Below are positions 3 through 14,584 of a stretch of DNA of 21,538 nt, piece by piece; the stretch's first letter is position 1, and every line of letters starts with the position of its first letter. Position numbers and translations under genes: made by a program. A model generated the notes under the pieces. The model worked only from the letters and a program-made list of their open reading frames with translations, had not been told where the DNA came from and did no database searches. This DNA is from Thermoanaerobaculia bacterium (GTDB lineage: Bacteria > Acidobacteriota > Thermoanaerobaculia > Multivoradales > UBA5704): assembly GCA_044226625.1 (NCBI GenBank), contig JBGAGQ010000084.1, positions 1-21,538 of the forward strand, in the 5' to 3' direction.

Positions 3-1121
3 TACCCGTTCACCGCGCCGCTCGCCCTCTCCTTCGGCCTGCTGCTCGACGCGCTCGCCACGCGGATCGCCTCTCGCTTCCGGGGCTCTCCGGCACCCGG
101 CGGGGAGACGCCGTCCCCGCGGAGCCGACTCGCGGCGGCGCTTTCGTGGGATCGGCTCGCCGTTCTGCTGGTCGCATTCCCGTTCGTTCTCGGCCAGGCC
201 GCGAGCTTCCGCCAGACGCTCCCCTCCCCACCGCACGACGCCTCGCCCGGCTTTTGGCGCGCCGCCGCGGTGCTCTCGCATCTCCTGGAAGCGGAAGCCG
301 CCCGGCCCGGCGCACCGCCCTGGACGCTCACCGACGGCCAGTTCCCCTTCCCCGGGATCCACGACGGCAGCCTCGCGTTCTCGACCATCTTCCGCACCCA
401 CTTCCCGCGGCCGATCGCCGGAGAGCGTTTCGCCCTGGCGCCGCCGGGCACCCGGATCGTTCCGGGCGTCTCGGCCGACGATCTCCGCCGGGAGAACGAG
501 GTGCTCGACCGCTGGGCCGACGCCGTGGGCGCCGCAACGGTGCCGGTCTGCGCGACCCCGAGCGGCCTGGTGGCCCCGACCGCCGCGGCGCACGTGGCCG
601 ATTTCCGCGCCTCCCCGCGGGACGACGTCGCCCTGTTCGGCCTCTACACCTGGGAGCCGCCGTTCCGCTGGATGGGCCCGACAGCCCGCCTGCGCCTCAA
701 GGCCGCCCCCGGCGACCTGATCGTCCGCGCCTGGATGCCTCCGCCGAGCGCCCTCTCCCGCCCCGAGCCGACGTTCACGCTCACCGCTAAGGCGGCCGGG
801 CGGATGCTCGGAACGTTCCGCTTCGACCCCGCCGGAGGCGAGCAGCTCGCCCGCTTTCCTCTCGCCGAGCCTCTCGCCCCCGACGGCTCGTCCGTGGTGA
901 TCGTCCTCACCGCCGATCCCGTCTGGCGCCCGAGCGAGAACATGCCGGGCTCGCGGGACACCCGGGAGCTCACCGTCGGCCTGTTCGTCGTCGGCTTCTC
1001 CAGCGACCCCCTCGAACGCCCGGTACCGATGCGCTGCCTGTCCGGAGGCGAGCCTTCCGGAATCGCCGCCGCGGGAACCGCCGCGCCGGCACCCGCCGCT
1101 CCAGCAATCCAGCCTCGTTGA
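3..1121 (+). CDS. Partial (5'-truncated by window) hypothetical membrane protein with C-terminal beta-rich extracytoplasmic domain
   Basis: The frame of ORF 270..1121 stays open back to position 3 (YPFTAPLALSFGLLLDAL...RLAVLLVAFPFVLG, hydrophobic segments). C-terminus has GLYTWEPPFRWMGP...DTRELTVGL. Confidence 0.65.
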   Translation, partial: YPFTAPLALSFGLLLDALATRIASRFRGSPAPGGETPSPRSRLAAALSWDRLAVLLVAFPFVLGQAASFRQTLPSPPHDASPGFWRAAAVLSHLLEAEAARPGAPPWTLTDGQFPFPGIHDGSLAFSTIFRTHFPRPIAGERFALAPPGTRIVPGVSADDLRRENEVLDRWADAVGAATVPVCATPSGLVAPTAAAHVADFRASPRDDVALFGLYTWEPPFRWMGPTARLRLKAAPGDLIVRAWMPPPSALSRPEPTFTLTAKAAGRMLGTFRFDPAGGEQLARFPLAEPLAPDGSSVVIVLTADPVWRPSENMPGSRDTRELTVGLFVVGFSSDPLERPVPMRCLSGGEPSGIAAAGTAAPAPAAPAIQPR

Positions 1122-1146
1122 TTCGGCGGACCTCGGCCCGTATCGT
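1118..1146 (+). promoter_or_regulatory. Putative sigma70 promoter, leaderless GNAT transcript
   Basis: TTGATT (1118-1123), 17-bp spacer, TATCGT (1141-1146), 6 nt, ATG at 1153; no SD sequence. Confidence 0.5.
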
Positions 1147-1152
1147 TGTCCG

Positions 1153-1695
1153 ATGCCGCCGAGCCCGCCGGATCCCACCCAGCCCGAACCGCCGACGCCT
1201 TCGTCCGCGGATCCGGCGGTCGTCCTCCGCCCCGCGACCCCCGCGGACCTCGAGGCGATCGGCCGGCTCGGCGCGCATCTGGTGCGCCTCCATCACGGGT
1301 TCGATCCGCTCCGTTTCCTGTCCGCGACGCCGCGGACCGCGGAGGGGTACGGCGCCTACCTCGGCACCCAGCTCGACGAGCCGAACGTCCTCGTCCGCGT
1401 GGCCGAGCTGGCGGGAAAGGTGGTCGGCTACACGTACGCGGGGGTCGAGGGGACGGACTACATGGCCCTGCGTGGGCCCGCGGGCGTTCTGTACGACATC
1501 GTGGTCGATCCGGAATATCGCGGCCAGGGGGTCGGCCGGCGCCTGCTCGACGCGACCCTCGACGAGCTCGGGCGGCGCGGCGCGCCCCGGGTGGTGCTCC
1601 AGACCGCGGAGCGGAACGAGACCGCGCAGTGGCTGTTCGAGCGCGCCGGCTTCCGCCGCACCATGGTCGAGATGACGCGGGAGTCGGACGCTTGA
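1153..1695 (+). CDS. GNAT family N-acetyltransferase
   Basis: Acetyl-CoA motif A IVVDPEYRGQGVGRRLL, N-terminal LRPATPADL, and NETAQWLFERAGF. Confidence 0.93.
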   Translation: MPPSPPDPTQPEPPTPSSADPAVVLRPATPADLEAIGRLGAHLVRLHHGFDPLRFLSATPRTAEGYGAYLGTQLDEPNVLVRVAELAGKVVGYTYAGVEGTDYMALRGPAGVLYDIVVDPEYRGQGVGRRLLDATLDELGRRGAPRVVLQTAERNETAQWLFERAGFRRTMVEMTRESDA

Positions 1696-1708
1696 GGCGA
1701 GCCGGGCG

Positions 1709-3328
1709 ATGAAAGTCTTCGAGATCGTCATCGCGCTCCTGATGGCCGGCGCCGCGCTCGCCGCCCTGTCGCGCAAGCTCGGTGCCCCCTACCCCGCCCT
1801 GGTAGCGTTCGCGGGCGCCGTCGCCGCGCTGATCCCCGGCGCGCCGACAATCGGCCTCGATTCGGAGTTGGCGCTCGCGCTGTTCGTCGCGCCGGTCCTG
1901 CTCGACGCCGCGTTCGACTCTTCGCCGCGCGACCTGCGCGCGAACTGGCGGGCGGTGGCGAGCCTCGCGCTCGGCGCCGTGGCGCTCACCATCGCGACGG
2001 TCGCCGTGGTCGCGCGGTGGCTCGTCCCCGACCTGCCCTGGAGCGCGGCGATCGCCCTCGGCGCGATCGTGGCGCCCCCCGATGCCGCGGCGGCCACGAC
2101 GGTGCTCAAACAGCTCCGCCCGCCCCACCGCCTGCTCGTGATCCTCGAAGGAGAGAGCCTGTTCAACGACGCGAGCGCACTCCTCGTGTTCCGCCTGGCA
2201 GTCGCGGCGACGCTCACCGGCGTCCTCTCTCCCTCGACCGTCCTGCCGACGCTCCTCGTGGTGACGCTCGGCAGCGTCCTCCTCGGCCTGGTGCTCGAGC
2301 GGATCCTGCTCGGATTCATCTCGAAGATCGACGACATGGCGACCGCCGTAGTGTTCCAGTTCTGCGGCACGTTCGCGGTCTGGATGCTCGCCGAGCGGCT
2401 TCATCTGTCGGGAATCATCACGATGGTGGTGTTCGCGATCGCCGCGGGGCGCCATTCGGCGAAGATCACCCCGGCGCGCATCCGCATCCCCTCCTACGCG
2501 GTCTGGGAGTTCGCGGTGTTCGTGCTCAATGTGCTCGCTTTCATCCTCGTCGGCTTCCAGCTCAAATCGATCTCGGCCCGGGTCACCGGAGCGCAAAGCG
2601 CGCGCTACGCGCTGGTCGCCGCGGTGGTCTGCGTCGCGGTGATCGCCGCGCGGATCGTCTGGGTAACCGGTGCGGCCGCCTTCAGCCGGTGGCGCTGCCG
2701 TCCCCGGGGGTCCAAGCCGGGGCCGAAAGACGCCGTGGCGCTCGACCGGCGCGGCGCCGCGGTCGTCGGCTGGTGCGGCATGCGCGGCACGGTGACGCTC
2801 GCCGCCGCGCTCGCGCTGCCGACCGGAGCGGGAGGGGGAACGCCGTTCCCCTACCGCGACCTGATCCTCGTCACCGCCTTCGGCGTGGTGCTCGGCACGC
2901 TCGTTTTCCAGGGCCTCACGCTTCGGCCGCTGATCCTCCGTCTACGTCTGGAAGACGACGGAACGGTCGATCGGGAGGTTCAACTCGCGCGAATCGAGAC
3001 CCTCAAAGCGGCCACGAAAGCCGCGGCCACCTGCCCGGGCGCCGAGACGGTCGATTTCGTCCGCCTCCGCTACGACCTCCAACTCCGCCGCGCCGAGGCC
3101 GAGCAGGACACCGCCCACGCGGCGGAAGTGGCGCGCGCCGAGGCGGCGGAGCGCAGGAAGGAAGAAGCCGTCGTCCGCGCCGCGACCGGAGCCGCCCGTC
3201 AGAGGCTGGTCGACCTACGGGCCGACGGAACCATCGGCGACGCCGCGTTCCAGCGCGTCGAGCAGGAGCTCGACCTCACCGATCTCGATTGGGCGCAGTT
3301 TCTTCGATTGGAGGAGGGGGAAGGGTAG
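1709..3328 (+). CDS. CPA1-family Na+/H+ antiporter (NhaP/YjcE-like)
   Basis: Many TM segments; motifs APPDAAA, ILEGESLFNDA, GMRGTVTLAAALALP, LVFQGLTL. Confidence 0.93.
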   Translation: MKVFEIVIALLMAGAALAALSRKLGAPYPALVAFAGAVAALIPGAPTIGLDSELALALFVAPVLLDAAFDSSPRDLRANWRAVASLALGAVALTIATVAVVARWLVPDLPWSAAIALGAIVAPPDAAAATTVLKQLRPPHRLLVILEGESLFNDASALLVFRLAVAATLTGVLSPSTVLPTLLVVTLGSVLLGLVLERILLGFISKIDDMATAVVFQFCGTFAVWMLAERLHLSGIITMVVFAIAAGRHSAKITPARIRIPSYAVWEFAVFVLNVLAFILVGFQLKSISARVTGAQSARYALVAAVVCVAVIAARIVWVTGAAAFSRWRCRPRGSKPGPKDAVALDRRGAAVVGWCGMRGTVTLAAALALPTGAGGGTPFPYRDLILVTAFGVVLGTLVFQGLTLRPLILRLRLEDDGTVDREVQLARIETLKAATKAAATCPGAETVDFVRLRYDLQLRRAEAEQDTAHAAEVARAEAAERRKEEAVVRAATGAARQRLVDLRADGTIGDAAFQRVEQELDLTDLDWAQFLRLEEGEG

Positions 3329-3417
3329 CTCTCGTGTTTCGGAAGCTCTCCTTCGTCGCAGGTTGCAAATTGGAATCAAGCAGCACGACGACGTTCGACT
3401 TCAACCGATAGCACTTG

Positions 3418-5385
3418 TCATGAGTGAGGCCAGAGCCCAAGCACCTGCGCGGCCCGCTCGGGATCCATACGGAAAGGGCTGCCTGCGCCTTCGAAGAGGT
3501 GGTGGTCGCGGATTAGATGCACCAAGAGACCGGAGCCTCGAAGGAAGTTTCGGGTCTTTCTCTGAACGATGAGGAACTCCAAGTTGGAAAAGCGGTATGA
3601 GAGGTCCGCACTGCAGGGTAGCTCCTGATCGGTCGACGGCGTGAGAACGGCGACGCCCTGTTTCAGTTTCCTGAAGACCTCGATCGCTGGGACCTCATCG
3701 CTCCACGGAAGGCGCAGGCAGGTAAACGGGCAGTACTGATACCCCAAATAGATCTGCAAGTAGACCTCGTGGTCTCCCACGAGGGCGCCGCGTTCCTCGG
3801 GGATCCGATCGCCAGAGCTCAAGCGCCTTTCGAGATCGTCGAGCGAGAAGCCGAGAGGTAGTATGGCCAAGCTGGCCATCCCTCGCTCGCCCGAGGCGCG
3901 GAGCGCCTCCACGAACTGCTCGGTCGCACGCGCGATGCGATCTCCGGACGCCAGCAGAGCTTCCGAGAGCAGGCGATCGAGCGCGTCCGAGATTTGCGAG
4001 TGTGTGAGCCCCATTCGCTGCAGCGTCTCGGCGTCGCGGTCCATGACATCGCGTAGCGATTCGCTCTCTCCAAGAAAGCCGGAGCGCGACCATCTTCCCG
4101 GCCGCATCCGCGCTTCGACCCAGGCCTCGGTAGGGCTGGTCGTGCACTGAGGGCATGCATACCCCGCCAACAGAACGCCCTCGATGACGGCATCGAAATA
4201 TGCGGACTCGCGCTGGCACGATGCGCACCGTCGAGCCGAGCCAGTTAATTCGCTCCGCCCAAAAACAGGCCGCTCTCCGAACAGCGTCGTCGGTAGGCCG
4301 GGGTCGTGGTGGTCGAATCCATCCATCGCCACCCCGAGAATCTGCTCCCCTTGCATGAGCACGCGAAGGTTGCGTCCTACCCTTGCCAACGCTCGCCGAT
4401 CTGGTTCGATCCCCCTTGGGATTGTCCAGGCAGGATCGCAAAAAAGGGAATCGAATTGCTCCAACCGCATCTCGAGGATGCGCGGCCCTATTCCATCCGC
4501 GACCTCGGTGAGCGACTTCCGGATGCCGTCCTGGCCGTAGATCGGCAGGAGGTTCCTGCCGCCATCGGGAAGCGTTACCACTCCAAAGAACGCTCCATTG
4601 GACCACCGCACCTTTTCCAAGAGGTCGCGTACGGCATCGCCCAGGGAGAGCGGGACGATCTCGGTCCACAGGTCTTCCGTAGAGGGGTTCTCGGGCTCGG
4701 ATCTCTCAAATTCGCCGCGCTGCAAATCCCGGCGTCGGCCCGCGGCCAGGGACGCAAATTCTCCCTTGGGGGCCACCTCGATAGCGTTTTGGTAATCGCG
4801 AGCGGCGCGAGAGGGGTCGCCGAGCATTTCGTGGGCGAGCCCTCGGTGATACTGCGTCATCGGTTGCGAAGGGTCGAGTCGGATCGCGATGTCCAGGTGC
4901 GGGAGCGCTTCCTTCCAACGGCCGAGCAGCAGACAGGCGATGCCCTTGTTGTCATGCGCTGTTCGATAGGAGGGATCGAAAGCAAGGGCTGCGTCATAGT
5001 CGCTCAGAGCTCGCTCGACTTGGCCGCTCTCAGCATACGCGAGCCCTCGCTCGGTCAGCGCCATCGGAAAGCAGGGCCGGAGTTTGATCGCCAGATCCAG
5101 ATCGGCGATCGCTTCCGGATAGCGTCGGAGCCTGCAGCGCACGAGCCCCCGACCATAGAAAGCGCTTGCGTCCGGACCGCGCTCGATCGCCCTGGTGAAG
5201 ATCTGGAGGGCTCCGTCCAAATCTCCCGCCTGGTTGAGTGCCCACCCCTGATTCAAAAGGTCGGTGAGATTCTCCTCGCGCTTGGCACCCGCTTCTCTCC
5301 CCAGCGCACCTCCAGCGTTGTCACCGGACGTCCCGGACGCCGGGCCTCTCGAAAGCTTCTCCTTGACCCTACTCAACCAAGACAT
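3418..5385 (-). CDS. TPR-repeat protein with CxxC...CxxC zinc-ribbon-like segment and uncharacterised C-terminal domain
   Basis: About five TPRs in the N-terminal third (e.g. AFYGRGLVRCRLRRYPEAIADLDLAIKLRP); CASC...CPQC; C-terminal GFLGESE...GYQYCPF...HLIRDHHLFEG..SPFRMDP; GGAGG SD upstream. Confidence 0.8.
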   Translation of the reverse strand: MSWLSRVKEKLSRGPASGTSGDNAGGALGREAGAKREENLTDLLNQGWALNQAGDLDGALQIFTRAIERGPDASAFYGRGLVRCRLRRYPEAIADLDLAIKLRPCFPMALTERGLAYAESGQVERALSDYDAALAFDPSYRTAHDNKGIACLLLGRWKEALPHLDIAIRLDPSQPMTQYHRGLAHEMLGDPSRAARDYQNAIEVAPKGEFASLAAGRRRDLQRGEFERSEPENPSTEDLWTEIVPLSLGDAVRDLLEKVRWSNGAFFGVVTLPDGGRNLLPIYGQDGIRKSLTEVADGIGPRILEMRLEQFDSLFCDPAWTIPRGIEPDRRALARVGRNLRVLMQGEQILGVAMDGFDHHDPGLPTTLFGERPVFGRSELTGSARRCASCQRESAYFDAVIEGVLLAGYACPQCTTSPTEAWVEARMRPGRWSRSGFLGESESLRDVMDRDAETLQRMGLTHSQISDALDRLLSEALLASGDRIARATEQFVEALRASGERGMASLAILPLGFSLDDLERRLSSGDRIPEERGALVGDHEVYLQIYLGYQYCPFTCLRLPWSDEVPAIEVFRKLKQGVAVLTPSTDQELPCSADLSYRFSNLEFLIVQRKTRNFLRGSGLLVHLIRDHHLFEGAGSPFRMDPERAAQVLGLWPHS

Positions 5386-5908: not shown

Positions 5909-6274
5909 CTAGCTTGGTGAGCCTTCAGGCGGTGCCGGGACCAATGTGGCGAGTTGTTGGATCAACAGAGGAATCTCGCTCACGGTCAGCAACCAGATGC
6001 GGTCATCCGCAATCTCATCGTAAGCGTGCACGAGCACGTTCCGTTGATCGACGATCCGTCGCCAAGGAATCTCGGGGTGAGCTTCTTTGAATTCGCTGGA
6101 GACTCGCCGTGCGGCCTCTCCAATGATCTCGATTCTCCGCTCGGTCGCAAGACGAAGATCTTCGTCCTCGACGTACCGCGCGAACGTGGAACCGCGGAGC
6201 GAAGAGACGACTCCCTTCACCGCCTTCAGCATGTCCCAAAGATGAACCGCATCACGGCCCGAGTCAGGCGGCAT
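5909..6274 (-). CDS. hepT: HepT-like HEPN ribonuclease toxin (DUF86)
   Basis: RX4HXY motif RNVLVHAY, IEIIGEAA, HPEIPW. Start moved to ATG 6274, which overlaps the mntA stop by 11 nt. Confidence 0.9.
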   Translation of the reverse strand: MPPDSGRDAVHLWDMLKAVKGVVSSLRGSTFARYVEDEDLRLATERRIEIIGEAARRVSSEFKEAHPEIPWRRIVDQRNVLVHAYDEIADDRIWLLTVSEIPLLIQQLATLVPAPPEGSPS

Positions 6275-6563
6275 AGAGGAGCTGCTGATTCGCCAGGATC
6301 GCCTGTCGGCGGAACGGATTCCGCAACCCCTTCTTCTCGACCAGGTCAACCTCGCGTCCGAAGATGCCTTCCAGCTCTTCCCTCATCGCAGAGAGGTCCC
6401 ACAACGTCCAGGGTGCCTCGGCTGCGAAGGAAACGAGAACGTCGACGTCGCTTTCTGGCCGAAAATCGGCGCGCAGCACGGAGCCGAACAGCGCCAGCTC
6501 GGTCACCTTCCAGCGCTGGCAGAATTCGGAGATACGTTCGCGGTCCATCTGGATTTCGGGCAT
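6264..6563 (-). CDS. mntA: MntA-like minimal nucleotidyltransferase antitoxin
   Basis: GSX10DXD motif GSVLRADFRPESDVD, GREVDLV; GAGGAG SD; TAGAAT -10-like box at 6582-6587. Confidence 0.92.
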   Translation of the reverse strand: MPEIQMDRERISEFCQRWKVTELALFGSVLRADFRPESDVDVLVSFAAEAPWTLWDLSAMREELEGIFGREVDLVEKKGLRNPFRRQAILANQQLLYAA

Positions 6564-6670: not shown

Positions 6671-7041
6671 CTAGCCCCCCACCTCGCCGAGGCTCCCGGA
6701 AAGCAACCGATCCAACTCCTCCCACTGGTCATCGCAAAGGCCCAGCCGATAGGCGGCCTGCCGGAAGGCCGCCTGCTCGCTGCGATAGAGCTCCCAGAGG
6801 CTCACCTTCCGATCCTCAACGCAGGCCCGGACGTTCGCCAGGCGGTCGGCGACTTTGACCAACAGAGCGAGCTCCGTCGGGCCGGTAACCTCCGCCAGTT
6901 TCGCGTAGGTCTTGGCCTTTCGCTCCTTACGGTTTGCGCCGGGCTGGTCCGTCAAGAGGTCCACGCAAGCCGCCACGTTCGATCCGAACCGGGACTCGAT
7001 CTCCGACAGCGTGGTGCCGGTGTCCTCGACGGTGTCGTGCG
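6671..7041 (-). pseudogene. C-terminal fragment of small alarmone hydrolase (Mesh1/SAH-type HD domain), disrupted by IS1595 element
   Basis: Reads HDTVEDTGTTLSEIESRFGSNVAACVDLLTD...ALLVKVADRLANV from 7039, i.e. the HDxxED and KxADRxxN motifs. It starts abruptly at the IR with no in-frame start before HD. Confidence 0.88.
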
Positions 7042-7065
7042 GGGCAACAACATACTTGACTCACC
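7042..7065 (+). repeat. Terminal inverted repeat (cargo end)
   Basis: GGGCAACAACATACTTGACTCACC; 23/24 match to the reverse complement of 10024-10047. Confidence 0.93.
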
Positions 7066-7084
7066 AGATAGTATCGTCTATGCT
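7056..7084 (+). promoter_or_regulatory. Putative sigma70 promoter for CapRel-like gene; -35 inside the IR
   Basis: TTGACT (7056-7061), 17 bp, TATGCT (7079-7084), 6 nt, ATG 7091. Confidence 0.65.
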
Positions 7085-7090
7085 TTGGGC

Positions 7091-8161
7091 ATGGCATGGA
7101 CCAAGCCTCAATTCGGGCGCGGGCGAGTGGACGCAGCGGGCGACCACTTGGCTAGCGATGATCTAGCAGATGAAGCCTTTTTTGATTCGCTTGCGGTTAT
7201 AAATAACTGGCGATCTTCCCATAGTTACCCACTTCAGGTCCTGAAAATGAACCTGCTCGGCCGCGCGAGAAGGGTTGATGGCGAAGCGATTGTGGCGCAG
7301 CGGCTTAAGAGGTTGTCGTCAATCAACATGAAGTTGAGACGCAATCCGAATATGAAGCTCTCACAAATGCAAGACATTGGGGGTTGCAGAGCGGTCGTTA
7401 AGTCGGCCGACAACGTTGAGAGTCTCCTCAAGTTATATCAAGAGGGGAGCGCAAAAAACCCTCGGGGTCGATCTGAGCTAGTCAAGACCTACGATTACAT
7501 TGCAAACCCGAAAAGCGACGGCTACAGGAGTATGCATTATATATACAAGTACAGGACCGACTCTCAGCAGCACCAGGTTTATGATGGCCTTAGAATCGAA
7601 ATTCAAATACGATCTCGGCGACAGCACGCTTGGGCGACAGCAGTAGAGACAGTTTCCACTCTGACCGGTCAATTTCTGAAATCGAACATCGGAGACGATC
7701 AGTGGAAGAGGTTTTTTGCCTTAATGGGCAGCGCTATCGCTATAAAAGAACGAAAGAATCCAGTTCCGGGGACACCCACCAACCGCAGCGAACTTTCCGA
7801 AGAATTGCGTGACCTGTCGGCACAGCTAAAAATTGAGACCGTTCTCTCAGGCTACAGTAACGCTATCCATTCAATTCAAGCCTCTATGGAAAATGCTATC
7901 GCCTACCTGATGGTTCTGGATTCGAAACGACAAACGGTAAACATTCACGGCTATTCGAAGCATGAACTTTTAGACGCCTCGGCCGCATATCTCCAAGTGG
8001 AAAAGGAGACCTCGAATCAACCGGAGATCCAGGCCGTCTTGGTTTCTGTGGAGTCCATCGCCGCACTTCGTAGCGCATACCCGAATTATTACCTGGACAC
8101 CAGGGCGTTCATTAGCGAAGTCCGAGAGGCCGTGTCTCCGCGTCCTGTTCGACGAACTTGA
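7091..8161 (+). CDS. capRel: RelA/SpoT synthetase-domain protein, fused CapRel-like toxSAS (putative anti-phage tRNA pyrophosphokinase)
   Basis: 356 aa from MAWTKPQF. SYNTH motifs QRLKRLSSI, MQDIGGCR, DYIANPKSDGYRSMH, IEIQIRSRRQHAWA; N-terminal NNWRSSHSYPL; C-terminal AVLVS...SAYPNYYLDT..F with YXXY at 8078-8089. The SYNTH call is firm; the CapRel subfamily call rests on recalled motifs. Confidence 0.8.
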   Translation: MAWTKPQFGRGRVDAAGDHLASDDLADEAFFDSLAVINNWRSSHSYPLQVLKMNLLGRARRVDGEAIVAQRLKRLSSINMKLRRNPNMKLSQMQDIGGCRAVVKSADNVESLLKLYQEGSAKNPRGRSELVKTYDYIANPKSDGYRSMHYIYKYRTDSQQHQVYDGLRIEIQIRSRRQHAWATAVETVSTLTGQFLKSNIGDDQWKRFFALMGSAIAIKERKNPVPGTPTNRSELSEELRDLSAQLKIETVLSGYSNAIHSIQASMENAIAYLMVLDSKRQTVNIHGYSKHELLDASAAYLQVEKETSNQPEIQAVLVSVESIAALRSAYPNYYLDTRAFISEVREAVSPRPVRRT

Positions 8162-8196
8162 GGGGGCCGGCCCTCCTTAAAATCGTCCTACTGCTT

Positions 8197-8382
8197 TCAA
8201 TCCTCAACCCCCAGAAACTCCCGCAGTGCCCGGCGGATGATCTCGGATTTGCTCGCCCGCTCCTTCGCCGCCCGCTTCTCCAGAGCTTCCGCTTCGTCCG
8301 TGTGTAGGTAAGCGACCTCCCGAACGAGTCCGCGACTCGTGGCGGGAGTCCTGCGCTCCGGTTTGGCTTTCCTGGTAGGCAC
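8197..8382 (-). CDS. Ribbon-helix-helix (CopG-like) DNA-binding protein
   Basis: VAYLHTDEAEALEKRAAKERASKSEIIRRALREFL is a typical RHH pattern. The GTG start at 8382 is uncertain. Confidence 0.75.
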   Translation of the reverse strand: MPTRKAKPERRTPATSRGLVREVAYLHTDEAEALEKRAAKERASKSEIIRRALREFLGVED

Positions 8383-8574
8383 CTCAGGACAATACCGAAC
8401 CGCGCTACCTACACTAGACACACGATAAACACGCACTATGCCCACATTGTAACCACCGGCCACCAATCTGGGAACGGAGGTGGAGCGAGCCGAAGGCGAG
8501 TGCGAAAGCCTTGCGCGAAGGGCACCGCCTTGCCTGTAGGCGGGGCGGGTTTCCATCTCAGAACGGAGGAAGCG

Positions 8575-8853
8575 GTGACGGTCGAACAGGCACAAACGGC
8601 GCTCGCCGCCGTGGCGGATGCTTTGGGAGAAACCGAGCGGGCGCTGGAAACGATCTTGGCGGAGTTGCCGCCGTCAGAGCAGGAAGATGCAATCCTTGAG
8701 CACCAAGGGCCATTCGACCGCGCGACAGAGATCCGCTCGGTGATCGAGTGCGCGTTGGCCGACAACATCCGGCCCGCGTTCGCAGAGCTTTGGGCGGCCG
8801 CTCTGGCGACGGATGATCAGTTGCTCGCCCGCTGGCGCGAGAGGCGCGCCTAG
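8575..8853 (+). CDS. Small helical hypothetical protein (92 aa), IS passenger
   Basis: GGAGGA SD at 8565-8570, GTG 8575, MTVEQAQTALAAVADAL...ATEIRSVIECALADNIRPA. Confidence 0.65.
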   Translation: MTVEQAQTALAAVADALGETERALETILAELPPSEQEDAILEHQGPFDRATEIRSVIECALADNIRPAFAELWAAALATDDQLLARWRERRA

Positions 8854-9008
8854 GCGGGTTTCGGGGCGTTCCTGCGGTCTTTGTAGGCGCGCTCGCGCTC
8901 CTCGATCTCCGACTTGGGAACGGAGAGAACGCGGCGCGTCAGGTCCGAGAACTTCTCAAACGGCGTACGTTCGGGCGGGATCTTCCCGCCCGGCTCGTCG
9001 TCTTTCAT
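8850..9008 (-). CDS. Small 52-aa ORF downstream of the transposase (absent from the ORF track)
   Basis: AAAGGGGG SD, ATG 9008, MKDDEPGGKIPPERTPFEKFSDLTRRVLSVPKSEIEERERAYKDRRNAPKPA*. Its stop overlaps the convergent gene's stop in CTAG (8850-8853). Confidence 0.6.
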   Translation of the reverse strand: MKDDEPGGKIPPERTPFEKFSDLTRRVLSVPKSEIEERERAYKDRRNAPKPA

Positions 9009-9044
9009 TTTTCCCCCTTTGGTTTCTTCCCCCGTCCTTGGCCC

Positions 9045-9998
9045 TTAGGCCGTGGTCGTTTGTCCGATCAACTCTTTGTACTGGACGCGCCGACCGATCA
9101 ACCCGGCGGCGGCGCGGACGAACCGGAGAGCATCGGTCCCCTTGCGGAGGTTGAACCGGAAAGTCTGTTCGTCCAGGTACCGGAACAAGTGGAACGGCTC
9201 GACGTTGACGTAGGTTCCCTTAATCGCCCGCTTCAAGAGGCTCCAGAAGTTTTCGAGCCCGTTGGTGTGAATCCGGCCCTTGGCGTAGCTCTCGGCGTGG
9301 TCGATAACCTGGTGCTCGTAGTCGCTCCCGAGATCGGCGTAAGACTTGAGAGCATCGGTGAAGACCGCGGAACCCTGCTCGACGTTCGACCGCACTTCCG
9401 GGCTCAGGGTCTTTCGCTTGACGTTGGCGACCACCTTGGCCTTGACGCGACTGTGGCCGTCCTTGCCGTGGCGCTCCAAAAGCCCCATGACCGCCGCCTT
9501 ACCCGCTCCGCCGGTGCCGGTGATTTTCGCGGCTCGCTTGTCGGCATGCATGAAGCGAGCGCGACCGCCGATAAAGGTTTCGTCCACTTCGACCTCTCCT
9601 GACATCATTTCGACGGTGCCATCCTGCAAGGCGAGCCGAATCCGGTGCGACATGAACCAAGCGGTTTTCTGAGTCACGCCGAGCGCCCGGGCGATTTCGT
9701 AAGACGAAACGCCGTTCTTGCAGTTGGCAACGAGCCAGAACGCCGGGAGCCACTTTTCCAGGCCGATCGGGGAATCCTCGAAAATCGTTCCGACCTTGAC
9801 CGAGAATTGCTTTTTGCAGGCGCGGCACTTCCAGATTCGGCGCGTCGCGAGAAACATCGGGTTCTCGGCTTCGCAACGGGGGCAAGTCACGCCGTTGGGC
9901 CAACGGAGATTCACGACGAAATCAAGCGCAACGTCGGGATGCGAGAAGTAAACGACGGCTTCGAGCAGAGTCTCGGGAAAGTGCTTGGTGGCGTCCAT
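9045..9998 (-). CDS. IS1595-family DDE transposase
   Basis: Zinc finger CPRC...CRAC, FSVKVGTIFEDS, HTH SSYEIARALGVTQKTAW, catalytic VEVDETFIGG / VFTDALKSY / HTNGLENFWSLLKR / YLDEQTFRFN; intact frame. Confidence 0.96.
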   Translation of the reverse strand: MDATKHFPETLLEAVVYFSHPDVALDFVVNLRWPNGVTCPRCEAENPMFLATRRIWKCRACKKQFSVKVGTIFEDSPIGLEKWLPAFWLVANCKNGVSSYEIARALGVTQKTAWFMSHRIRLALQDGTVEMMSGEVEVDETFIGGRARFMHADKRAAKITGTGGAGKAAVMGLLERHGKDGHSRVKAKVVANVKRKTLSPEVRSNVEQGSAVFTDALKSYADLGSDYEHQVIDHAESYAKGRIHTNGLENFWSLLKRAIKGTYVNVEPFHLFRYLDEQTFRFNLRKGTDALRFVRAAAGLIGRRVQYKELIGQTTTA

Positions 9999-10004
9999 GC
10001 AGAG

Positions 10005-10033
10005 ACTCTACCCGAGAAACGCGGGTGAGTCAA
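10005..10033 (-). promoter_or_regulatory. Putative sigma70 promoter for the transposase; -35 inside the IR
   Basis: TTGACT (10033-10028), 17 bp, TAGAGT (10010-10005), 6 nt, ATG 9998. Confidence 0.6.
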
Positions 10034-10047
10034 GTATATTGTTGCCC
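10024..10047 (-). repeat. Terminal inverted repeat (transposase end)
   Basis: Minus strand GGGCAACAATATACTTGACTCACC. Confidence 0.93.
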
Positions 10048-10176
10048 TTCTTCCCCGTAAGGGGCTGCGATCGCCGCGACGGCATCGAGGTGATAGGCGT
10101 AGGGATGATCGCCGTACTTCTGTTCGCCATGCGCCTCGAGGGCGAAGGCACGGGCTCGGGCGATTGTGGGCGACAT
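10048..10176 (-). pseudogene. N-terminal fragment of the disrupted small alarmone hydrolase
   Basis: Hand translation from ATG 10176: MSPTIARARAFALEAHGEQKYGDHPYAYHLDAVAAIAAPYGEE (RSH hydrolase AH.GQ...PY..H motifs). It runs into the IR as GQQYT*. Confidence 0.88.
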
Positions 10177-10306: not shown

Positions 10307-11413
10307 TCAGCCGATCTTCTTCAGCTTGGCGAGCTCGGGCTCGCCGAGCCACGCTTTGAGCTCGGCGACTTTCGCCGCGTTGGCTGCCCGCCAATCCGCG
10401 GAGCCCTTCGGGTCGAGCGATTGGAGCGCCAGGTAGGTGAACGGCTGGACGAGCGATTTCTCCTTCAAGGCATCGAAGAATCCGCCATATTGCCCGCAAG
10501 GGAAACACTTTCCGCCCTGTCCTGGCTTCAATTCCGACATCGAACCGAGCAGCGAGTCCAAGACCCCGGCCAGCCACTGCAGATCGCCTTGGTCCTTGAA
10601 TTCGGGCAGATAGCGGCCCGCCGCGACGATCGACAGCATCAGATCCGACGATCCGAAAGGCCCCTTGCCGGCCGTTTCCGACAAGTTGATCGTCACGTTG
10701 CCCCCCGAGCCCTCCGGCGTGACGCCCTTTAACACGAGGTCCTTGACCGAGCGAGCGACTTGGCCCGCGCGTTCGGACTCCGAATCCAGGCTCAGATACC
10801 GGAGGTTCGCGAGAAGGGCGGGAATCCGCCGGCCGGTTCGAGCGTAGAGAACTCCGAGCGCGTAATTGCCCGACAGATGTTCCGGCTGCACCTTCACCGC
10901 CCGCTCCAGCGCCGACTCCACTTCGGAGATATCGCCGAGTCGGTCGTAGACGACCGCGAGGTTGAACCAGAGCCCGGCGTCTCCAGAATCCTCCCGCAGA
11001 CCACGCTTGATCACGGCGATCGCCTTCTTGGGCTCTCCCCCGGCGTCGTAGCAGCTTCCGGCGAGAGCAAAGATCTGAGACCGAATCGAAGATTCGAGCC
11101 GTAGGGCTTTCTTGGCGGTCTCGTAACAGGCCTGCCATTGTTTCTGGAAGGCATAGGTGAAGCTGGATTCGTAGAGGGCGGTCACGTTCTTCGGGTTGGC
11201 GGCCAACACCTCGCGATATTTCGCGAGCGCCCCTTCGAAATCCCCCTTTTCGTGGAGCCGAACCCCGGCTTCGATTTCAGCCTGTTGTTCCTCCAAGGTC
11301 ATCTGCTCGGCGGAGGCACGAACCGCCCCAAGGGCGGCCGCCAACGAGAACAGCAGAACAGGGCCCCATGCCCCGCGGTTACGGCGGCGACGACCGTACT
11401 GATCTGGAATCAT
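10307..11413 (-). CDS. Exported TPR-repeat protein
   Basis: Signal-peptide-like N-terminus (RRRRNRG...VLLFSLAAALGAVRASA) followed by about five TPRs (e.g. AGLWFNLAVVYDRLGD). Confidence 0.85.
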   Translation of the reverse strand: MIPDQYGRRRRNRGAWGPVLLFSLAAALGAVRASAEQMTLEEQQAEIEAGVRLHEKGDFEGALAKYREVLAANPKNVTALYESSFTYAFQKQWQACYETAKKALRLESSIRSQIFALAGSCYDAGGEPKKAIAVIKRGLREDSGDAGLWFNLAVVYDRLGDISEVESALERAVKVQPEHLSGNYALGVLYARTGRRIPALLANLRYLSLDSESERAGQVARSVKDLVLKGVTPEGSGGNVTINLSETAGKGPFGSSDLMLSIVAAGRYLPEFKDQGDLQWLAGVLDSLLGSMSELKPGQGGKCFPCGQYGGFFDALKEKSLVQPFTYLALQSLDPKGSADWRAANAAKVAELKAWLGEPELAKLKKIG

Positions 11414-12205: not shown

Positions 12206-12520
12206 AAGGACCAGAGCTCCCGCGCCAGGGATCAGCGATCCGTCTCGAAGGACCAACGATCCCGCGTCAAGGACCAGCGATCCTTCGCGAAGGACCAGCG
12301 CTCCCGCGCCAAGGACCAACGTTCCTTCGCGAAGGACCAGCGCTCCCGCGCCAAGGACCAGAGATCCTTCGCGAAGGATCAGTGATCCCGCGCCCAGGAC
12401 CAACGATCCTTCGCGAGGGATCAGTGATCCCGCGCCCAGGACCAACGTTCCTTCGCGAAGGACCAGCGATCCCGCGCCCAGGACCAACGATCCTTCGCGA
12501 GGGATCAGTGATCCCGCGCG
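12206..12520. repeat. Tandem array of 15 x 21-bp units, alternating A/B (42-bp superperiod)
   Basis: Consensus AAGGACCARCGATCC followed alternately by CGCGCC or TTCGCG; exact 21-bp register throughout. Confidence 0.93.
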
Positions 12521-12605
12521 AGGGAACGGCAAGTATTGCCGAGGAGCGCTGATCCCGCCTGCGGGATCGGCTTTTACCGGGCCGGGCTGGTTTCTGACGT
12601 AACGG

Positions 12606-13058
12606 TCAGGTCTCCAAGCCGTCCCACGACCATCGCGGGATTCGTAGGTCGCCCGGGACCTGTTCGGGGCTATCCGGGTACGCCGCCATCGTGGTGGTCG
12701 TCGTCCACGCAAAATAGTCGTGGAGCGCGCGTCGGAGCCGCGGGTCCGTGAGCCCGACTCGATCCATGGCTTGATCGAAGCATTCGATCGCGCGGCGATC
12801 CATCTCCTCATGAACGCCGTTGCCGCTGTGGAGACGAACGACGGACGACTCACTGCCCAACGATTCGCTGTACGTCGGCGGGCCGCCCCACGCCTCGCCC
12901 CAGTAGGCCGCCAGGCGCTCCGTATGCTGAGGATGGAAGCCGTGGCTAAAAGCGTGGGCGACGATCTCGTCTGCCAGAACGCACTCATGCCAGGCGTGCG
13001 CTAGGTCTCGTACGCCGTCGGCTCCTCCGAGCGATTCGAACAAGGTAGAAGATTGCAT
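12606..13058 (-). CDS. Group II truncated hemoglobin
   Basis: LFESLGGADGVRDLA, HTERLAAYWGEAWGGPPTYS, VVRLH, CFDQAMD; GGAGGAG SD. Confidence 0.88.
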   Translation of the reverse strand: MQSSTLFESLGGADGVRDLAHAWHECVLADEIVAHAFSHGFHPQHTERLAAYWGEAWGGPPTYSESLGSESSVVRLHSGNGVHEEMDRRAIECFDQAMDRVGLTDPRLRRALHDYFAWTTTTTMAAYPDSPEQVPGDLRIPRWSWDGLET

Positions 13059-13140
13059 ATCGTCGCTCCTCCCGCGGCGCGAGTGTACCGCGCGGAGTGA
13101 ACGGATCTTGCGGTGCCCATCTGGCGCTTTCCGAGCCAGA

Positions 13141-13270
13141 AAGTGACTTCAAGGTCCAGCAAGTGACTTGAAGGTCTGGGAAGTGACTTCCTGGAGTGTA
13201 GAGCGGCTGGTTCGACCGTAAAGCCGCTTCCTCGACCGTAGAACTACTTCCTCGATCGTAAAGCCGCTTC
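13141..13270. repeat. Degenerate 20-bp-period repeat array
   Basis: AAGTGACTT at 13141, 13161, 13181; TCGAYCGTA ending at 13220, 13240, 13260; AAGCCGCTTC at 13221 and 13261. Confidence 0.8.
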
Positions 13271-13300
13271 CGGAGATTCGGAGGGCGGTGCGCTCTTCGA

Positions 13301-14584
13301 TCAGGTGGGGAGCCGCCCGGCCCGGCGCAGCAGGTACTCCCGCTCGGGAACGCTCGTCGTCTTCTCGGCCGCAGCGCAGTAGAGCGCTCCAGCCTCTTCC
13401 GTCCTTCCGGCGCGCTCGAGCAGATGGGCGCGGACGGCGTCGAGGCGATGCCCTCCGGCGAGGCGCTCGTCGGTTTCGAGGGGCCGGAGGCGTTCCAGCC
13501 CCGCTTCCGCGCCGTGGACCATCGCGAATGCGACCGCCTGGTTCAAGGCGACGATCGGGTTGTCCTCCAGGCGCAGGAGCACCGTGTAGAGCGCGAGGAT
13601 CTGCGGCCAGTCGGTCGCGTCGGCGCTCGGTGCCTCGTCGTGGACGGCGGCGACCGCGGCCTGGAGCTGGTACGGGCCGACCGCGCCGCGGCGGAGGGCG
13701 GCGGAGACGAGGGCCACTCCCTCTTCGATGCGCGCGGCGTCCCAGAGCGAACGGTCCTGCTCGTCGAGCGGAATCAGCTCGCCTGCCGGCCCGGTCCGCG
13801 CGGCGCGGCGGGCGTCGGTGAGGAGCATCAGGGCGAGGAGGCCGGCGGCTTCGGCGTCGTCCGGCAGCATGCGGTGGACGATGCGGGCGAGCCGGATCGC
13901 CTCGTTCGAGAGATCCGTGCGCGCGAGCTCCGGGCCGGAGGTCGCGGCATATCCCTCGTTGAAGATCAGGTACAGCACGTGAAGGACCGAGGCCAGCCGT
14001 TCCGCTCGCTCCGCGGCGTCGGGGAGGCGGAACGGCACGCCCGATTTCTTGATCGCCTGCTTTGCCCGGTGGATGCGCTGCCCCATCGTCGCCTCGGGCA
14101 GAAGGAACGCCCGCGCGATCTCCCCGGTGGTGAGGCCCCCGACCGCGCGCAGCGTCAGGGCGACCGCCGCCGAGGACGGAAGCGCGGGATGGCAGCAGAG
14201 GAAGAGGAGGACGAGCGTGCCGTCCGCCTCCGATTCGAAATCCGCGCCGAGATCGGCGGCGGAAGAAAGGTGCCGCTCCGTCTCACCGTACGCCGCGGGC
14301 ACGACCACGAACGCCGTCTCCTCGGCGAGAGCGGCCTCCCGCGCCCGCCGCGAGGCGTCGCTGCGCAGGAGGTCGATCAGGCGGCGAGCCGCCACCTGGA
14401 TCAGCCAGCCGCGCGGGTTTGCGGGGAGTCCCCCACGCGGCCATTGGTTCGCGGCGGCGAGGAGCGCCTCCTGCACCGCGTCCTCCGAGGCGTCGAAGTC
14501 CCGGAACCGCCGCACGACCGCGCCGAGCACCTGCGGCGCGAGCTCGCGCAACAGGGGCTCGAATTCGAAGTCCTGCGACGGCAC
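13301..14584 (-). CDS. ECF RNA polymerase sigma factor with C-terminal TPR-like extension (ECF42-type)
   Basis: sigma2 SEDAVQEALL...PRGWL; LFLCCHPAL; sigma4 GGLTTGEIARAFL; YLIFNEGY, GPYQLQAA, TDWPQI; directly follows a YCII gene. Confidence 0.92.
   Translation of the reverse strand: MPSQDFEFEPLLRELAPQVLGAVVRRFRDFDASEDAVQEALLAAANQWPRGGLPANPRGWLIQVAARRLIDLLRSDASRRAREAALAEETAFVVVPAAYGETERHLSSAADLGADFESEADGTLVLLFLCCHPALPSSAAVALTLRAVGGLTTGEIARAFLLPEATMGQRIHRAKQAIKKSGVPFRLPDAAERAERLASVLHVLYLIFNEGYAATSGPELARTDLSNEAIRLARIVHRMLPDDAEAAGLLALMLLTDARRAARTGPAGELIPLDEQDRSLWDAARIEEGVALVSAALRRGAVGPYQLQAAVAAVHDEAPSADATDWPQILALYTVLLRLEDNPIVALNQAVAFAMVHGAEAGLERLRPLETDERLAGGHRLDAVRAHLLERAGRTEEAGALYCAAAEKTTSVPEREYLLRRAGRLPT

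Follow-up and report, generated by a model that had tools for sequence, protein, structure and literature searches.

We found that a 3,004-bp IS1595-family insertion sequence (IS), at positions 7043-10046 of a contig from a Thermoanaerobaculia bacterium, carries a homolog of the phage-defence protein CapRel and lies inside a 172-aa HD_4 hydrolase gene that resembles those of small alarmone hydrolases (SAHs). The whole contig (C89; 21,538 bp, from an assembly of 6.6 Mb with 67.7% G+C and 133 contigs) was analysed and is referred to here as the window. The most general result is that this clade of CapRel travels as insertion-sequence cargo. As for the interrupted gene, it is probable that the CapRel-bearing element struck, by chance, a dispensable, horizontally acquired SAH-like gene and, with a small flanking deletion, inactivated it irreversibly.

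The window holds a 3.0-kb IS1595-family "transporter" insertion sequence with CapRel-type cargo. Its boundaries are two 21-nt inverted repeats, the left (IRL) at 7043-7063 on the forward strand and the right (IRR) at 10026-10046 on the reverse strand, which agree at 20 of 21 positions; the pair was first spotted by eye and then confirmed by script comparison, and was not among the 25 repeats listed by a general repeat search. The ends are fixed by 8-bp duplications around related elements, whose repeats start exactly at the first G. Between the repeats lie, in order, a cargo slot, an open reading frame (ORF) with a ribbon-helix-helix domain, two small ORFs and the transposase gene (9045-9998, reverse strand). 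The encoded transposase is apparently intact at 317 aa, matches DDE_Tnp_IS1595 (PF12762, 1.2e-41, profile positions 2-153 of 153) and the NCBIfam model transpos_IS1595 (NF033547, 3.4e-53; cut-off 75 bits), and bears an N-terminal zinc ribbon (Zn_ribbon_IS1595, PF12760, 3.1e-14). The element thus has the zinc-ribbon DDE transposase and the terminal inverted repeats of the IS1595 family, and lacks the 8-bp target duplication. Its cargo slot (7068-8196, forward strand) has 50.5% G+C, compared with 60%-64% for the backbone, and was delimited by means of a second element of the same genome, which shares the backbone and shows no likeness to the window in the cargo.

The gene in this slot (7091-8161, forward strand) encodes a protein of 356 aa that, judged by its sequence and predicted fold, is a full-length CapRel homolog, with an N-terminal toxSYNTH domain (RelA_SpoT, 2.5e-18) and a C-terminal antitoxin/sensor domain. 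Its best matches among Protein Data Bank (PDB) sequences were 7ztb and 9erv (E 8e-39; query residues 32-340 against chain residues 38-362 of 373), with housekeeping small alarmone synthetases ranking after CapRel at 1e-9 or weaker, and the PADLOC candidate PDC-S33, a name that was not found in the literature searched, matched over the full length (2.3e-120). An AlphaFold2 model built from a 40-sequence alignment (mean pLDDT 88.6) retrieved 7ztb_B with Foldseek (1.2e-22; TM 0.66-0.69 over 361 columns), and its top PDB folds were "Salmonella tRNA pyrophosphokinase CapRel" and "CapRel bound to Bas11 Gp54". The root-mean-square deviation of the model from the CapRel crystal was about 10 A, which fits a closed model compared with an open crystal form. 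The structure 7ZTB is CapRelSJ46, in which, as described in PMC9712102, R79 and R116 coordinate ATP, Y155 lies in the G-loop, and a YXXY motif (Y352, Y355) blocks the active site in the closed state. Equivalents of all five residues are conserved in the alignment of the cargo to 7ztb, which reaches residue 340 of 356 and places Y-P-N-Y opposite Y352-Y355; the cargo thus combines a toxSYNTH domain with the ATP arginines and the G-loop tyrosine and a fused C-terminal domain with YXXY. By analogy with CapRelSJ46, the cargo may pyrophosphorylate tRNA, be triggered by capsid protein and protect against phages: the C-terminal domain would hold the tRNA-pyrophosphorylating N-terminal domain shut until binding of a phage capsid protein released the toxin, whereupon translation would be blocked and the infection would abort. 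The family is large: of 8,000 candidates scored, drawn from 5.8 billion proteins, at least 6,193 reached E <= 1e-20, and the closest of those scored is only 64% identical.

It is common for CapRel homologs of this clade to travel as IS1595 cargo. We collected 84 loci with CapRel homologs, 22 from one-genome-per-species contigs and 62 from metagenome contigs, of which 12 were dropped where the first 300 letters of the match were the same as in another, leaving 72 distinct loci. With linkage defined as the presence of the inverted repeat (at most 5 of 21 positions changed), a transposase at >=40% identity, or both, 24 of the 72 loci were linked to IS1595, with the repeat mostly standing 51-154 nt ahead of the start of CapRel. 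Searching for the repeat returned 28 matches, compared with none for the reversed pattern and 0-2 for each of five shuffled patterns in the same 625 kb. Of 401 genomes of the phylum, 16 contain the 21-mer repeat family. Perfect 8-bp duplications flank seven of the nine other complete elements (loci L043, L044, L055, L067, L096, L097 and L114), four of which (L067, L096, L097 and L114) carry CapRel as complete elements of 2.3-3.5 kb; no target duplication was found around L045 or the 520-bp L053. No published link of CapRel or toxSAS toxins to insertion sequences was found among the titles and abstracts listed.

The same vehicle carries different genes. The second copy in the genome of the window (G000), now decayed and spread over C93:1603-3054 and C15:140-705, shares the left repeat (25 nt, 96% alike), and its backbone is 88%-90% like window positions 8197-9248; its 927-nt cargo, which includes a 261-aa ORF, is unrelated. 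An IS21-type element with IstA/IstB-like ORFs interrupts this copy, whose transposase gene is reduced to the last 67 codons on C15. At L045 (G154:C239, positions 56-3898), an element of the same repeat family encodes a 322-aa protein matching PADLOC PDC-S13 (2.8e-81) and Pfam Bro-N, and by such matches the cargo slot of sister elements holds other candidate defence genes. Neither Pfam nor PADLOC gave a family for the 261-aa ORF on C93, the 402-aa ORF of L044 or the ORFs of L055 and L043. Nested IS3-type insertions (rve integrase) are present in L043 (G009) and L044 (G331), one in each, and the latter splits the transposase gene. A putative addiction-module pair stands on C93 just before the second element, and HicA-like and PIN/VapC-like ORFs, recognized by eye from their translations, adjoin the CapRel elements of L067 and L068.

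How the cargo might be expressed is suggested by the repeats themselves, both of which hold TTGACT with a -10-like hexamer 17 nt inward. One promoter-like site (7056-7084, forward strand; 9 of 12 consensus positions) faces the cargo gene and has its TTGACT -35 box within the IRL, while another (10005-10033, reverse strand) faces the transposase gene with its -35 box within the IRR; three such sites were found where 0.7 would be expected, all of them consensus matches only. The cargo is probably expressed from the first of these sites, and as its -35 box comes with the repeat, we propose that expression would not depend on the place of insertion. In the backbone, the ORF at 8197-8595 (reverse strand) ends in a ribbon-helix-helix (CopG) domain at 8212-8298 (RHH_1, 3.8e-08), probably has an internal true start, and is common to the second element on C93 (59% identical in amino acids, 88% in nucleotides) and to L043. 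The 117-aa ORF at 8500-8853 (forward strand) is conserved in the second element on C93/C15 (89%-93% in amino acids). The 52-aa ORF at 8850-9008 (reverse strand) has a relative on C15 at 85% amino acid identity and others that adjoin the transposase gene in further CapRel elements (L063, L104, L116, L129 and L136). No family in Pfam, PADLOC or NCBIfam matched either the 117-aa or the 52-aa ORF.

The flanks of the element are the two parts of one hydrolase gene read on the reverse strand. The N-terminal HD_4/SAH-like fragment (10047-10176) starts with the ATG at 10176 and comprises residues 1-43 and the first base of codon 44, so that 10048-10176 encodes 43 residues from the methionine; the C-terminal fragment (6671-7040) comprises the last base of codon 50 and residues 51-172, with 122 residues from His-Asp, the beginning of the HD...ED motif, encoded at 6674-7039 and the stop codon at 6671-6673. 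The C-terminal fragment alone exceeds the 27.2-bit cut-off of Pfam HD_4 with 27.5 bits, covering profile positions 47-155 of 156, and it also matches the hydrolase portion of TIGR00691 (4.7e-11), while the N-terminal piece of 47 aa is too short and matched nothing in Pfam or NCBIfam. A hidden Markov model built here from 119 intact homologs of one clade (HD HMM) scored the C-terminal fragment at 1.3e-62 and the N-terminal fragment at 6.4e-17. A protein search gave 421 relatives at E <= 1e-5 among 427 candidates, and the closest intact homologs have 169-172 aa and are 76%-81% identical. In an alignment with eight intact homologs (A1), the fragments are colinear in one protein with seven residues missing at the break, and H16, H29, H51, D52, E55, D56 and D115 are nearly invariant. 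One intact homolog (P0002) matched known structures, namely the RelSeq hydrolase domain (2.9e-12), MESH1 (8e-11) and the solved SAHs 6yvc, 6z3o and 7qoc (1e-8 to 2e-7). The protein is a single domain in the SAH range (~170-200 aa) with the HD fold and the H...HD...ED...D motifs, and the broken gene is of the SAH-type HD_4 kind; by analogy with other SAHs, the putative substrates of its product are the 3'-pyrophosphates of (p)ppGpp/(p)ppApp and of pyrophosphorylated tRNA.

What such an enzyme could do to CapRel has been described for other SAHs, which neutralize toxSAS toxicity (PMC7229694). According to Table 1 of that paper, three SAHs, namely ATfaRel of C. marina and the SAHs of phages PVP-SE1 (PbcSpo) and SSU5 (PaSpo), neutralize all five toxSAS assayed, CapRel included; human MESH1 likewise neutralizes toxSAS including CapRel, and it was proposed there that phages could evade toxSAS-type defence by means of SAHs. 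A first-pass annotation of this DNA had described an IS1595 element that carries a CapRel-like RelA/SpoT homolog (RSH) synthetase gene and splits an SAH-type gene just before its HD motif, noting that promiscuous SAHs can counteract toxSAS. Its coordinates and each part of that description were borne out, by the profile matches, the inverted repeats, the fold search, the alignment and the published table. The analysis adds to it the missing target duplication, a net loss of 17 letters and the three small backbone ORFs.

An allele without the element was found in a bioreactor metagenome. We examined three public runs (X1-X3) of one sample and one study, kept as contigs, of which X1 contains 0.94 of the words of the window stretch. 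Two X1 contigs connect position 7040 directly to 10047, skipping 3,006 letters and holding 19 others in their place, with 82 letters on the shorter side of the junction; the 19-letter stretch occurs in two variants, on contigs with depths of 5.7 and 4.22. When the first variant is placed between the flanks of the window, an unbroken frame of 172 aa results, whose product reaches 302 bits with the HD HMM and aligns gap-free with P0002 over 165 residues at 79% identity; its seven restored residues agree with the consensus of the hydrolase family. The empty allele that the annotation had suggested looking for in relatives or raw reads therefore exists among the X1 contigs; a protein search of 60 relatives gave none. 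In the window, the 19 letters are replaced by two (GG, 7041-7042), which are part of neither the inverted repeat nor the intact allele, for a net loss of 17 letters that puts the broken allele out of frame.

An assembly artefact, in which a chimeric contig would only make the element appear to lie inside the gene, is very unlikely. The assembly is fragmented (133 contigs, with 5.5% contamination), and insertion sequences often break or mis-join assemblies, but a separate X1 contig matches 7011-8579 with zero differences at a depth of 12.8 and bridges the left junction, and as it was built independently, that junction is supported apart from the assembly of the window. Moreover, the two flanks align in order with a single gene and share its orientation, the pattern expected of an insertion. 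None of the X1 pieces listed was seen across the right junction; run X2 covers only parts of the element and adds nothing on the junctions, and X3 holds only pieces of at most about 33 letters, mostly 90%-95% alike, without junction information. Two X1 contigs match the right end of the element as far as 10049 and then continue into unlike sequence, an indication that this IS end has other locations in the same community too.

Since both allele states are present in one sample, one might think of a reversible switch between synthetase ON with hydrolase OFF and the converse, operated by excision of the element, as the first-pass annotation had also considered. We regard this as extremely improbable. 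Precise excision cannot rebuild the frame, because 19 letters are gone and two foreign ones added (net 17) and there is no target duplication, and the contigs with the intact allele differ from the window at other nearby sites (about 90%-95% alike), stemming from related strains rather than from excision. The inactivation of the hydrolase gene by the element is thus not one that excision could undo.

The junctions also bear on how the gene was broken. The eight letters flanking the two ends, TCGTGCGG and CTTCTTCC, are unlike each other, and given that the family makes 8-bp target duplications, the copy in the window has lost its own or never made one. The simplest account is that the element inserted in the ordinary way and that about 25-27 letters beside it were then deleted; a small deletion of this kind would have followed or accompanied the insertion. 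Alternatively, a stretch of the hydrolase gene resembling the tip of the repeat may have drawn the transposase or recombination, which would explain both the site and the duplication that is missing here and present in seven of nine other complete elements. In one intact-allele contig, a 9-mer at the break has 7 of its 9 letters in common with the repeat tip, and in the hydrolase frame the tip (7043-7051) reads V-V-A, the same three residues as the lost stretch. However, 7 of 9 is a weak match, the seven duplicated target sites of the relatives have no such motif in common, and the junctions are out of register, with two letters as against five before the look-alike. A flanking deletion of about 25-27 letters accounts for the structure equally well, the likeness at the break may be coincidence or micro-homology, and we consider sequence-directed insertion unlikely.

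The hydrolase gene itself is an accessory, dispensable gene and not a conserved host gene. It sits in an island (about 3.4-13.4 kb of the window) with 60%-65% G+C, compared with 70%-74% in its flanks, that is rich in toxin-antitoxin genes. A close homolog was present in none of 60 relatives ranging from the same genus to the same order (protein search), where the only matches were long RSH genes and a handful of further frames with <=40% identity; a homolog at E <= 1e-30 was present in 2 of 121 genomes of another order, that of the Rhodocyclaceae-titled genome G459, and the protein matches the phage family phrog_990 (2.4e-35). The annotation's term "host enzyme" therefore does not suit a gene that has no homolog above about 40% identity in these relatives. 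Two intact homologs lie on short contigs of small co-directional ORFs, one of which matches endonuclease VII/HNH, and these contexts are suggestive of phage origin; the neighbours of another intact homolog look chromosomal (SLT_2, VanZ, PliI and RdgC). None of the intact homologs at L149-L151 has an RSH neighbour.

Directly downstream of the broken gene and outside the element, the island encodes an MNT/HepT toxin-antitoxin pair (5909-6563, reverse strand), with a nucleotidyltransferase at 6264-6563 (NTP_transf_2, 2.5e-18) and HepT at 5909-6349 (HepT-like, 5.1e-21). Two TPR-repeat proteins flank the island, at 3418-5385 and 10307-11413, both on the reverse strand; the C-terminal ~430 aa of the former are without any Pfam family. 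No tRNA gene and no integrase were found in the window.

Other CapRel carriers with a visible flank were not seen to lie in hydrolase genes. With the HD HMM run with filters off on six-frame translations of the window and of 103 loci (L043-L145), the only matches were the two fragments of the window and the long RSH of L081 (1.5e-16), which served as a positive control. Among elements with >=100 nt visible outside a repeat, none of the 19 other CapRel carriers lies in an HD gene, that is, 1 of 20 does when the window's own is counted; targeted insertion, as the annotation had entertained it, finds no support here. In 15 genomes of the phylum, 19 loci with repeats of this family were likewise free of RSH cargo and HD flanks. 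The 6-8 kb flanks of the 84 loci with CapRel homologs contained no HD_4 ORF other than the long RSH of L081. At that locus, in a record titled Acidobacteriaceae, CapRel (7644-8675) and a long RelA/SpoT gene (12497-14515) are about 4-5 kb apart, a proximity that is probably due to chance. Hence, target choice is not a property of the element family, and a chance hit in a non-essential accessory gene is most likely.

The alternative is that the knock-out was selected. An active SAH, which works on the product of the toxin rather than by binding, would erase the pyrophosphate that CapRel adds to tRNA, leaving CapRel unable to protect cells in which the enzyme is made, and insertions that destroy the SAH would yield working defence and be enriched by phages; put adaptively, the IS would "deliver and disarm", bringing a tRNA-pyrophosphorylating gene and destroying the only stand-alone hydrolase, thereby licensing the defence. 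Several observations speak for this reading. The disrupted gene is the sole stand-alone HD_4 gene found in this genome, the only other HD_4 match being a long RSH on C37, and under uniform random insertion a hit on a 0.5-kb target in a 6.6-Mb genome is improbable (~8e-5), so that the delivery of a toxin together with the destruction of its potential neutralizer is a striking match. A functional effect is plausible because SAHs of two subfamilies and MESH1 neutralize CapRel (PMC7229694), and PaSpo was co-expressed to produce CapRelSJ46 according to the Methods of PMC9712102. Filled and intact alleles occur in one sample, at contig depths of 12.8 as against 5.7 and 4.2, as would be seen for a selectable polymorphism. 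Also to be set against a chance hit are the repeat-like 9-mer at the break, the missing target duplication, and the reach of the flank survey, as eight of its flanks are short (122-751 nt) and a one-clade HD HMM could miss fragments of distant SAH subfamilies.

Nonetheless, the case for selection is a single instance, no HD gene having been found around any of the 19 other CapRel elements with a visible flank, and the window was chosen from a very large scan because the pairing seemed meaningful. Small HD_4 frames of 184-251 aa are retained in 6 of 22 CapRel-bearing genomes (a count with no background figure), including G456, the host of the complete element L067, which means that a genome need not lose its hydrolase to carry CapRel. 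In addition, the published neutralization by SAHs relied on over-expression, and contig depths do not equal shares of cells. Taken together, a selected knock-out, and with it the adaptive form of the argument, seems to us a possible but doubtful explanation, and chance inactivation of an accessory SAH-like gene is preferred. Under chance inactivation, loss of the hydrolase may be neutral or may aid CapRel. Were "deliver and disarm" true, the filled and intact alleles would be a live polymorphism kept by phage pressure, and toxSAS immunity would be held down by resident SAH genes, whose destruction would benefit mobile elements.

Whichever of these holds, repeated carriage by IS1595 elements is a new route of spread for a defence system that has been known from prophages. 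The cargo belongs to a large environmental CapRel clade (PDC-S33), with elements in Acidobacteriota- and Phycisphaerales-titled genomes besides that of the window, and at 2.3-3.5 kb the elements would be a very small vehicle for single-gene immunity. The hydrolase gene, intact in some members of one community and destroyed by a CapRel carrier in others, offers a natural allele pair, which makes it testable whether resident or phage SAHs blunt toxSAS immunity at native expression.

Compared with CapRelSJ46, the cargo is of similar length (356 versus 373 aa), colinear over residues 32-340 and assigned the same top fold, and it is likewise a single-gene fused toxin-antitoxin with R79, R116, Y155 and the YXXY motif conserved. 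It differs in being only about 28% identical and in its setting, since CapRelSJ46 comes from Salmonella phage SJ46 and E. coli prophages, whereas the cargo rides on an IS in an environmental high-G+C genome. The IS1595 family includes "transporter IS" with passenger genes, in the ISfinder subgroups marked "+". The element of the window shares with these the zinc-ribbon DDE_Tnp_IS1595 transposase, short inverted repeats and extra genes between the ends, and, through its repeat family, the 8-bp duplications found in seven of nine other complete elements; here, however, the gene carried is one for phage defence and occupies a fixed slot that adjoins the IRL on its inner side, and the contents of that slot vary among sister elements (PDC-S13 in L045, a 261-aa ORF on C93).

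Type IV pairs of toxSAS and SAH and the phage SAHs (FaRel/ATfaRel, PaSpo and PbcSpo) are a second point of reference, as a small HD_4 hydrolase and a toxSAS occur here in one genome and the hydrolase clade has phage relatives (phrog_990). Unlike those pairs, the two genes form no operon, as adjacent, co-conserved genes were not found at the 84 CapRel loci with 6-8 kb of flank; instead, the toxin element interrupts a hydrolase gene that was present first and was then destroyed. Insertion of an IS with adjacent deletion is a general way in which genes are inactivated, and the window resembles it closely, with a non-essential gene split, no duplication and a short stretch lost at the junction. 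What sets this case apart is that the product of the inserted gene might be counteracted by the very enzyme that was lost.

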